A stretch of 316 nucleotides of DNA from Escherichia coli (GTDB taxonomy: Bacteria > Pseudomonadota > Gammaproteobacteria > Enterobacterales > Enterobacteriaceae): assembly GCF_003334385.1 (NCBI RefSeq), contig NZ_QOWN01000206.1. The stretch is one strand, 5' to 3'. The position numbers were made by a program, and so were the translations under genes. Each line of letters opens with the position of its first letter. The first letter of the stretch is position 1. Positions 1-316 of this stretch are shown here, piece by piece. Below the pieces are notes generated by a model that saw only the letters and a program-made list of their open reading frames with translations, did no database searches and had not been told where the DNA came from.

Positions 1-316
1 AGATGGTGAAGCAGCTCACCGTTGCCACAGTAAATGGCGGCATGGTTCGGTACCGAAGCACCAAAGCAGCACAGCAGCACATCGCCCGGTTGTGCTGATG
101 ACAACGGCACCTGATACAGCCCTGTGGCCTCCAGATTATCCAGGTACAGGTTCTGGCCGTTGCGCCACCAGTCATCCTCGCGATGAAAATCCGGCATTTC
201 AGTCCCCGCCAGATGATAAGCATCCCGGAACAGCGTGTAACAGTCCGTCACCCCGTGCTCAAAGCGCCGTCCTGTCAGATGTGGCACACAGCGGAATTTG
301 TGAATGTCACCCCGGC
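1..316 (-). CDS. K: Phage tail tip assembly protein K (lambda gpK family; JAB/MPN + NlpC/P60), internal fragment, partial at both ends. In-frame codons occupy + positions 3-314; N-terminal side is toward position 316, C-terminal side toward position 1.
   Basis: Only one of the six frames on this strand is stop-free across the window; the other two minus frames hit stops within the first few codons. I checked the translation codon by codon. It contains the strings IHKFRCVPHLTGRRFEHGVTDCYTLFRDAYHLAG, REDDWWRNGQNLYLDNLEATGLYQVP, QPGDVLLCCFG and VPNHAAIYCGNGELLHH, which I recall as characteristic of lambda gpK and its prophage homologs (from memory, not database-verified). The NlpC/P60 signatures are present: D-C-Y-T-L around the nucleophile Cys, and H-A-A-I-Y-x-G around the catalytic His. 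Codon usage is E. coli-like (CTG Leu dominant, CCG Pro, GGC/GGT Gly). Confidence 0.92.
6..269 (-). other. NlpC/P60 (papain-like cysteine peptidase fold) domain region of the K protein. Putative catalytic Cys codon at + 240-242 (aca, reverse complement tgt), catalytic His codon at + 42-44 (atg, reverse complement cat), third polar residue His at + 6-8 (or the adjacent His at 3-5). Domain boundaries are approximate.
   Basis: Motif order and spacing: Cys in a G-V-T-D-C-Y-T-L context, then His 66 residues later in N-H-A-A-I-Y-C-G, then His 12 residues after that in E-L-L-H-H. This matches the canonical Cys ... His ... (His/Glu/Gln) arrangement of the NlpC/P60 superfamily. Boundaries are inferred from motif positions, not from a profile search. 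Confidence 0.75.

Follow-up and report, generated by a model that had tools for sequence, protein, structure and literature searches.

The 316-nucleotide stretch of Escherichia coli DNA analysed in this study (hereafter the window) is an undamaged internal piece of a homologue of the phage lambda tail-assembly gene K, from a lambdoid E. coli prophage. When identity, state and role are taken together, we consider it very likely that the gene is a lambda K homologue, that it is most likely functional, and that its product acts as a transient assembly enzyme on a tail-tip protein and is probably not a cell-wall enzyme of the virion. The gene is already known, the window representing one more allele of an ordinary lambda K homologue.

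Within the window, 99 of the 104 encoded residues (95%) are identical to lambda gpK (WP_000194780 in lambda DE3, NP_040598 in NC_001416), with 88% nucleotide identity, which bears out the reading of this frame as a lambda K homologue in an earlier note on the same DNA. None of the five substitutions relative to lambda K (D/T, T/I, S/A, A/S and N/D) falls at a conserved column. Mapping to full-length K places the window at residues 97-200 of a 247-aa protein, and the K of E. coli 2012EL-2448 is identical in protein sequence across the window, with three synonymous differences in the DNA. Neither the start nor the stop of K is inside the window, which also leaves out approximately 25 positions at the end of the NlpC/P60 domain, a quarter of its length, and most of the JAB domain (Table 1). 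The NlpC/P60 model PF00877 matches window residues 15-104 (E 3.7e-10, model positions 1-80 of 105) and, in the full protein taken from an exact-match contig, residues 111-224 (E 2.9e-13, model positions 1-105 of 105).

Three features that characterise the gpK family are also present. High similarity to lambda K is seen both in the 99 identical residues and in the match of the full protein to PHROG 30, 'minor tail protein' (E 4e-161). The architecture of a JAB/MPN domain followed by an NlpC/P60 domain in about 245 aa is found in the contigs carrying exact copies, of which the window shows residues 97-200, and the M-L-K-I-J order of tail-tip genes is found in contigs L004 and L015-L024, in the E. 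coli RefSeq neighbours and in lambda. Lambda K resembles the exact-match K in its position between L and I, in its combination of JAB and NlpC/P60 domains and, in lambda DE3, in its length of 247 aa; the two full-length genes differ with a dN of 0.054 and a dS of 0.55. In E. coli genomes the gene is annotated as a 'C40 family peptidase' of 247 aa, between 'minor tail protein L' and a 'tail assembly protein' (I) and upstream of J, while phage records name it 'tail tip assembly protein K'.

Table 1. Features of the 316-base window. Positions are plus-strand coordinates of the window; K residue numbers refer to the 247-aa protein.
Feature	Position	Strand	Details
Lambda gene K homologue, internal fragment	3..314	-	104-codon stop-free frame (reverse-complement frame 2); codons 97-200 of the 247-codon ORF
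NlpC/P60 domain (Pfam PF00877, MEROPS C40)	3..272	-	First 80 of 105 model positions; remainder outside the window
End of JAB/MPN domain and linker (K residues 97-110)	273..314	-	Prok-JAB (PF14464) spans residues 3-105 of full-length K
Asp before the Cys, K D120	243..245	-	Invariant column in the alignment of 92 distant homologues
Putative nucleophile Cys, window C25 = K C121, motif T-D-C-Y-T-L-F	240..242	-	Codon TGT; 101 of 106 homologues
Putative catalytic His, window H91 = K H187, motif P-N-H-A-A-I-Y	42..44	-	Codon CAT; 103 of 106 homologues
Putative third triad residue His, window H103 = K H199	6..8	-	Codon CAC; 12 residues past the catalytic His; invariant in 93 sequences
Second His of the 'HH' pair, window H104 = K H200	3..5	-	98 of 106 homologues; at least 90% of the 92 distant ones
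Antisense stop-free frame, 105 codons	2..316	+	Frame 1 of the plus strand, no stops; no Pfam or homology support

The earlier note had reported a frame free of stops and frameshifts over 104 codons, which is the case for the minus-strand frame occupying + 3..314 and translating as RGDIHKFRCVPHLTGRRFEHGVTDCYTLFRDAYHLAGTEMPDFHREDDWWRNGQNLYLDNLEATGLYQVPLSSAQPGDVLLCCFGASVPNHAAIYCGNGELLHH; of the span that it gave (3-269), the start is correct, while the frame continues for another 45 bases beyond the end, to + 314. By itself, however, the lack of stops in 316 bases at 57% G+C does not count as evidence of a gene. In 1335 of 5000 dinucleotide-preserving shuffles of the window (27%), at least one of the frames remained open for 104 codons or more, so the absence of stops is uninformative at this size and composition. 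The plus strand provides an example, since it is open over 105 codons. That antisense frame was considered as a gene and rejected, because its differences from related sequences are nearly all non-synonymous and the relatives carry one or two stops in it; it reflects the composition of the opposite, coding strand. An RNA element was also ruled out, as an Rfam scan of the window returned only a chance-level match (E 0.2, 11 bits against a gathering score of 40).

In sequence comparisons, the coding frame is identified by homology and by its pattern of substitution, both of which are beyond chance. The three closest alleles differ from the window at one to three positions, all synonymous, and differences from related alleles are mostly synonymous in general. 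The resulting dN/dS of 0.05-0.11 (window versus seven related alleles) agrees with the purifying selection that the earlier note proposed, but as a record of the history of the phage lineage rather than of the state of the sampled copy.

The same note had placed a nucleophilic Cys at + 240-242, a His at + 42-44 and a third polar residue, also a His, at + 6-8, and had offered misalignment with the conserved Cys and His of the family as grounds for giving up the reading. All three positions agree with the present analysis and all three residues stand on the catalytic Cys, His and His columns of the family; judged from these alignments, the assignment is correct. The homologue set comprised 2,823 matches in a library of 1.8 billion proteins, of which 92 full-length representatives of 32-58% identity were aligned. 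Across these 92 proteins, H199 and D120 are invariant, and conservation of C121, H187 and H200 is at least 90% in each case. H200 forms the second half of an 'HH' pair; canonical NlpC/P60 enzymes in the alignments vary at this position.

Structural comparison leads to the same three residues. In an AlphaFold model of the full K from an exact-match contig (pLDDT 97.4, pTM 0.91), which has the papain-like alpha+beta fold, C121 opens helix 121-131, in keeping with the NlpC/P60 Cys at the start of the first helix. H187 begins strand 187-193 and H199 lies on the adjacent strand 196-199, as is characteristic of NlpC/P60 enzymes, in which the catalytic His is found on a beta-strand and a polar residue follows about 12 positions later. 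A gap of 12 residues is the usual spacing between the second and the third residue of the NlpC/P60 triad. In pairwise alignments with PDB sequences, window H91 aligns to the His of 'DHVGIYLG' (4xcm) and of 'SHAGIYIG' (8idc), and H103 aligns, 12 residues downstream, to the terminal His of 'GVFAH' (4xcm) and of 'GLMVH' (8idc). The literature searched holds no experiment on the catalytic residues, and no biochemical data, for any gpK, and PDB sequence, profile and Foldseek searches found no solved gpK structure.

Although the JAB/JAMM-like domain of K lies almost wholly outside the window, its predicted metal-site residues E19, H68, H70, S78 and D81 are intact in the exact-match contig (L004 3061-3375, K residues 1-105) and are conserved family-wide, which suggests that selection acts on both of the peptidase domains in K. 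In sequence and in fold, the N-terminal part of full-length K matches Pyrococcus furiosus JAMM1 and AMSH, with the same five residues kept. A search of PDB chains with the K family profile divides the protein in the same way, with the C-terminal half matching MepS/Spr, CwlO and LytE and the N-terminal half matching JAMM proteins, and Foldseek searches with the K model returned MepS, Acd33800 and LytE at a probability of 1.0, together with JAMM deubiquitinase-like proteins.

The length of lambda K requires comment, as the earlier note had expected roughly 200 aa and the family length is 247 aa. The lambda reference NC_001416 does annotate K at 199 aa, because of a one-base difference in that record. 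Compared with lambda DE3 in Rosetta2-DE3 (L040 909-1658), NC_001416.1 (L039 1128-1876) is without one G and is otherwise identical across the gene; the site reads GAGGC-TATTTC in NC_001416 and GAGGCGTATTTC in lambda DE3. This single base puts the first 48 codons of the reference K, upstream of Met49, out of frame; it may stem from an error in the 1982 sequencing or from genuine strain variation. Since the 247-aa form includes the conserved JAB residues E19, C21, G22 and N38, 247 aa is the real length of the family.

Homologues of K are abundant in E. coli. Of 5,426 complete E. coli genomes, 4,347 (about 80%) contain matches to the window, at 14,474 places in all, with a median of 2 and a maximum of 14 copies of K per genome and with 10-12 copies in O157 genomes. 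The allele in the window is an uncommon one. Of 4380 E. coli RefSeq records, just 2 reach 99% identity to it and none reaches 100%, the best matches being at 99.1-99.4%. A scan of GTDB species-representative genomes gave no match to a 140-base sub-pattern of the window. The same sub-pattern identified an IMG/VR prophage contig (L004) that carries the whole window at 316/316. On this contig K encodes 247 aa; before it come H (partial), M and L, after it come I, J and the genes for a tail fibre and for fibre assembly, and all of these frames are open.

At least 24 contigs encode exactly this 247-aa protein, and in the ten places listed the window matches at 316/316 in nine and at 315/316 in one. 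Exact 316/316 copies were found in at least 10 assemblies, in all of which K is full length and located between L and I. These contigs allowed two checks suggested by the earlier note to be carried out: extension of the frame in both directions gave a complete 247-aa ORF with no frameshift or premature stop, and the flanking tail genes proved intact, with the same order Z-U-V-G-T-H-M-L-K-I-J-stf-tfa in the ten listed places. The start of gene I is called differently among them, giving products of 193, 210 and 226 aa (L015 10690-11322, L016 10741-11322, L023 10642-11322); the longer versions run into the 3' end of K, sharing as much as 100 bases with it, and none extends into the window.

Head modules of three kinds, lambda-like, ClpP/Gifsy-2-like and HK97-like, accompany one and the same K allele (L015, L020, L022, L001), which indicates recombination within or near the tail module and marks K as part of a recombining module. 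The prophage of E. coli 2012EL-2448, whose K is 99% identical to the window, carries a 387-aa 'porin OmpC' gene between M and L (L001 6646-7809), as cargo inside the tail-tip operon, and related phage records are named 'PPompW'.

The one chromosome in which the surroundings of an exact copy of the window were followed from end to end is that of E. coli CP077225.1, where the copy belongs to a prophage of approximately 46 kb located between yccA and hyaA, with a host flank 100% identical to E. coli core genes. This element carries an integrase gene together with excisionase-like and recE-like genes and dicB, and it encodes a 214-aa repressor that has an S24 self-cleavage domain, along with cro and O/P-like replication genes. 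Further genes are Q, those for a methyltransferase, holin and lysozyme, Rz/Rz1, Nu1, A, W, the portal gene, C, D, E, FI, FII and the tail genes, with every module at normal length. An apparent disruption of the Rz spanin gene was rejected, as tblastn recovered a continuous open frame of 154 residues that had merely not been called. By gene content, this prophage looks complete. The element also has about 1.25 kb without a called gene, between ea22-like and hok-like genes (L034 7798-9047), and in related prophages (L036, L037) an IS transposase lies just upstream of the matching spot; the gap may be an IS scar or may hold uncalled small genes. The same chromosome contains two lambda-like prophages (L025, L026) whose K genes match the window at 303/316 and 316/316 and whose 501-aa gpC proteins are identical, which provides ample homology for recombination between prophages.

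The earlier note drew from the intact frame and active site that the phage is recently active or still inducible. This does not follow, because an intact K is the default state of the gene. Using cluster sizes as a rough proxy for a per-copy census of K integrity, 69% of the 79,755 sequences that belong to the 120 best clusters are 242-249 aa long and a further 14% are 199 aa, the latter reflecting an alternative start call; of the remaining 17%, most are labelled partial and lie at contig ends, while aberrant fusions amount to 0.07%. An intact K is thus the normal state in at least 83% of about 80,000 database members. Defective prophages retain such genes as well. Most of the lambdoid prophages of O157 Sakai have multiple defects, in repressor, integration, portal or head functions (PMC2669165), and most of those listed were still scored '+' for minor-tail genes (PMC2669165). 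With an intact K so usual, and with minor-tail genes kept in the defective Sakai prophages, the window cannot tell a live prophage from a decaying one. In addition, the mosaicism described above, one K allele with three head modules, means that the integrity of K is not transferable to the rest of the prophage. Very little about the viability of a prophage can be predicted from an intact active site in one short piece of a tail gene, and a functional or inducible prophage is, as a conclusion from this window, weakly supported.

A narrower claim of the same note, that this is a functional copy rather than a decaying remnant, is retained on different grounds. That the sampled K copy is most likely functional follows from the base rate of intact K and from the surroundings of the exact matches, not from the 316 bases, while support for a complete prophage comes solely from exact-match genomes outside the window, chiefly the element in CP077225.1. 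It is conceivable that the sampled K instead belongs to a defective or decaying prophage in which this region has so far been spared or the tail module has been refreshed by recombination between prophages. The window on its own is compatible with this explanation, as are the multiple K copies per E. coli genome (median 2, up to 14), the '+' scores for minor-tail genes in most of the defective Sakai prophages, the recombination implied by the three head modules and a truncated K remnant in one genome (H110). However, K is full length and its neighbours are intact in all contigs carrying exact copies, and the CP077225.1 element retains integrase, excisionase-like gene, repressor, cro, replication, Q, lysis, packaging, head and tail genes at normal lengths. 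On balance, we regard residence in a decaying prophage as unlikely.

With the K copy taken as most likely functional, the question becomes what its product does. gpK is needed for lambda tail assembly (PMC12617516) and is not resolved in any virion structure (PMC12617516); it was undetected in virions by mass spectrometry and is regarded by the authors of that work as non-structural (PMC10721106). Iyer and colleagues noted that K, with its JAB and NlpC/P60 domains, constantly adjoins I, whose product has a ubiquitin-like N-terminus with a C-terminal Gly, and predicted that K processes this ubiquitin-like domain (PMC1779556). JAB/JAMM peptidases are paired with ubiquitin-like proteins in a similar way, and K always adjoins gpI with its ubiquitin-like domain, although cleavage of gpI is only predicted. 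In two recent cryo-EM studies (one of them PMC12617516), gpI is resolved only from about residue 134; the absence of its N-terminus from the maps could fit processing by K, or could reflect disorder rather than cleavage. The tail protein gpH is converted to gpH* by a protease as yet unnamed (PMC12617516).

These observations suggest that K would be active inside the producing cell as a transient assembly enzyme, with its peptidase domains processing a tail-tip protein. The published candidate substrate is the ubiquitin-like N-terminal part of gpI, and the tape measure protein gpH would be a second possibility. K would probably not be an enzyme of the virion that cuts the cell wall.

Generic annotations point in another direction, suggesting that the NlpC/P60 domain is a peptidoglycan endopeptidase that acts on the host cell wall at DNA entry or exit. 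The nearest solved structures are indeed murein endopeptidases (MepS, LytE, CwlO and Acd33800), and the Foldseek neighbours of the C-terminal domain are all cell-wall hydrolases. MepS/Spr, LytE, CwlO and Clostridioides difficile Acd33800 share with K the papain-like fold and a Cys-His-His triad whose third His lies 12 residues past the second. These are exported cell-wall enzymes, whereas K, at only about 15-22% identity to NlpC/P60 murein endopeptidases, shows no recognisable export signal, includes a JAB domain in the same chain and has a role in tail-tip assembly instead of wall turnover. The N-terminus of K (MTQTESAILAHARR...), read by eye from the sequence, is without a hydrophobic export signal, and the JAB isopeptidase fusion together with the constant adjacency to ubiquitin-like gpI points to a protein substrate.

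The names 'C40 family peptidase' and 'cell wall-associated NlpC family hydrolase' are generic, and one database source calls the protein a cell-wall hydrolase. There is a weak match to TIGR02219 (phage_NlpC_fam, 'putative phage cell wall peptidase', NlpC/P60 family), whose members resemble K in being phage-encoded NlpC/P60 proteins in a tail gene cluster; at 24.6 bits against a curated cutoff of 81.9, however, K falls far below the threshold and is not a member. Moreover, gpK is absent from lambda virions by mass spectrometry (PMC10721106), lambda virions are stated to carry no such enzyme (PMC12617516), and the prophage has its own lysozyme, holin and spanins. A role as a cell-wall endopeptidase is therefore considered quite improbable.

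The reading of K as a transient assembly factor has a parallel outside lambda. PA0639, an F-pyocin protein of Pseudomonas aeruginosa that has been described as homologous to gpK, is absent from finished particles, and its deletion gives tip-less F-pyocin tubes (bioRxiv 10.64898/2026.02.24.707460). As an assembly factor PA0639 resembles the role proposed for gpK, its homology being taken from that description, but it belongs to a tail-only bacteriocin cluster rather than a prophage. While the requirement for this homologue in F-pyocin assembly raises the idea that the E. coli K copy is kept for the benefit of the host, for example in a tailocin-like particle, and not for a phage, the exact-match K sits with head, packaging, lysis and immunity genes and not in a tail-only cluster, which makes such an origin highly implausible.

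The methodological lessons of this analysis concern three signals that can each mislead: an open frame in a 316-base window, an intact active site, and the 199-aa length in the lambda reference. The biological question that the window touches is what the two conserved peptidase domains in gpK act on. It is possible, and we put it forward only tentatively, that the putative Cys-His-His triad is a protein-processing site used once in tail-tip assembly, for the trimming of gpI or the conversion of gpH to gpH*, and not a site of cell-wall hydrolysis. To this idea the window contributes one more allele with an intact triad and nothing specific beyond that. If the idea is true, K would be a phage-encoded, deubiquitinase-like, two-headed peptidase.
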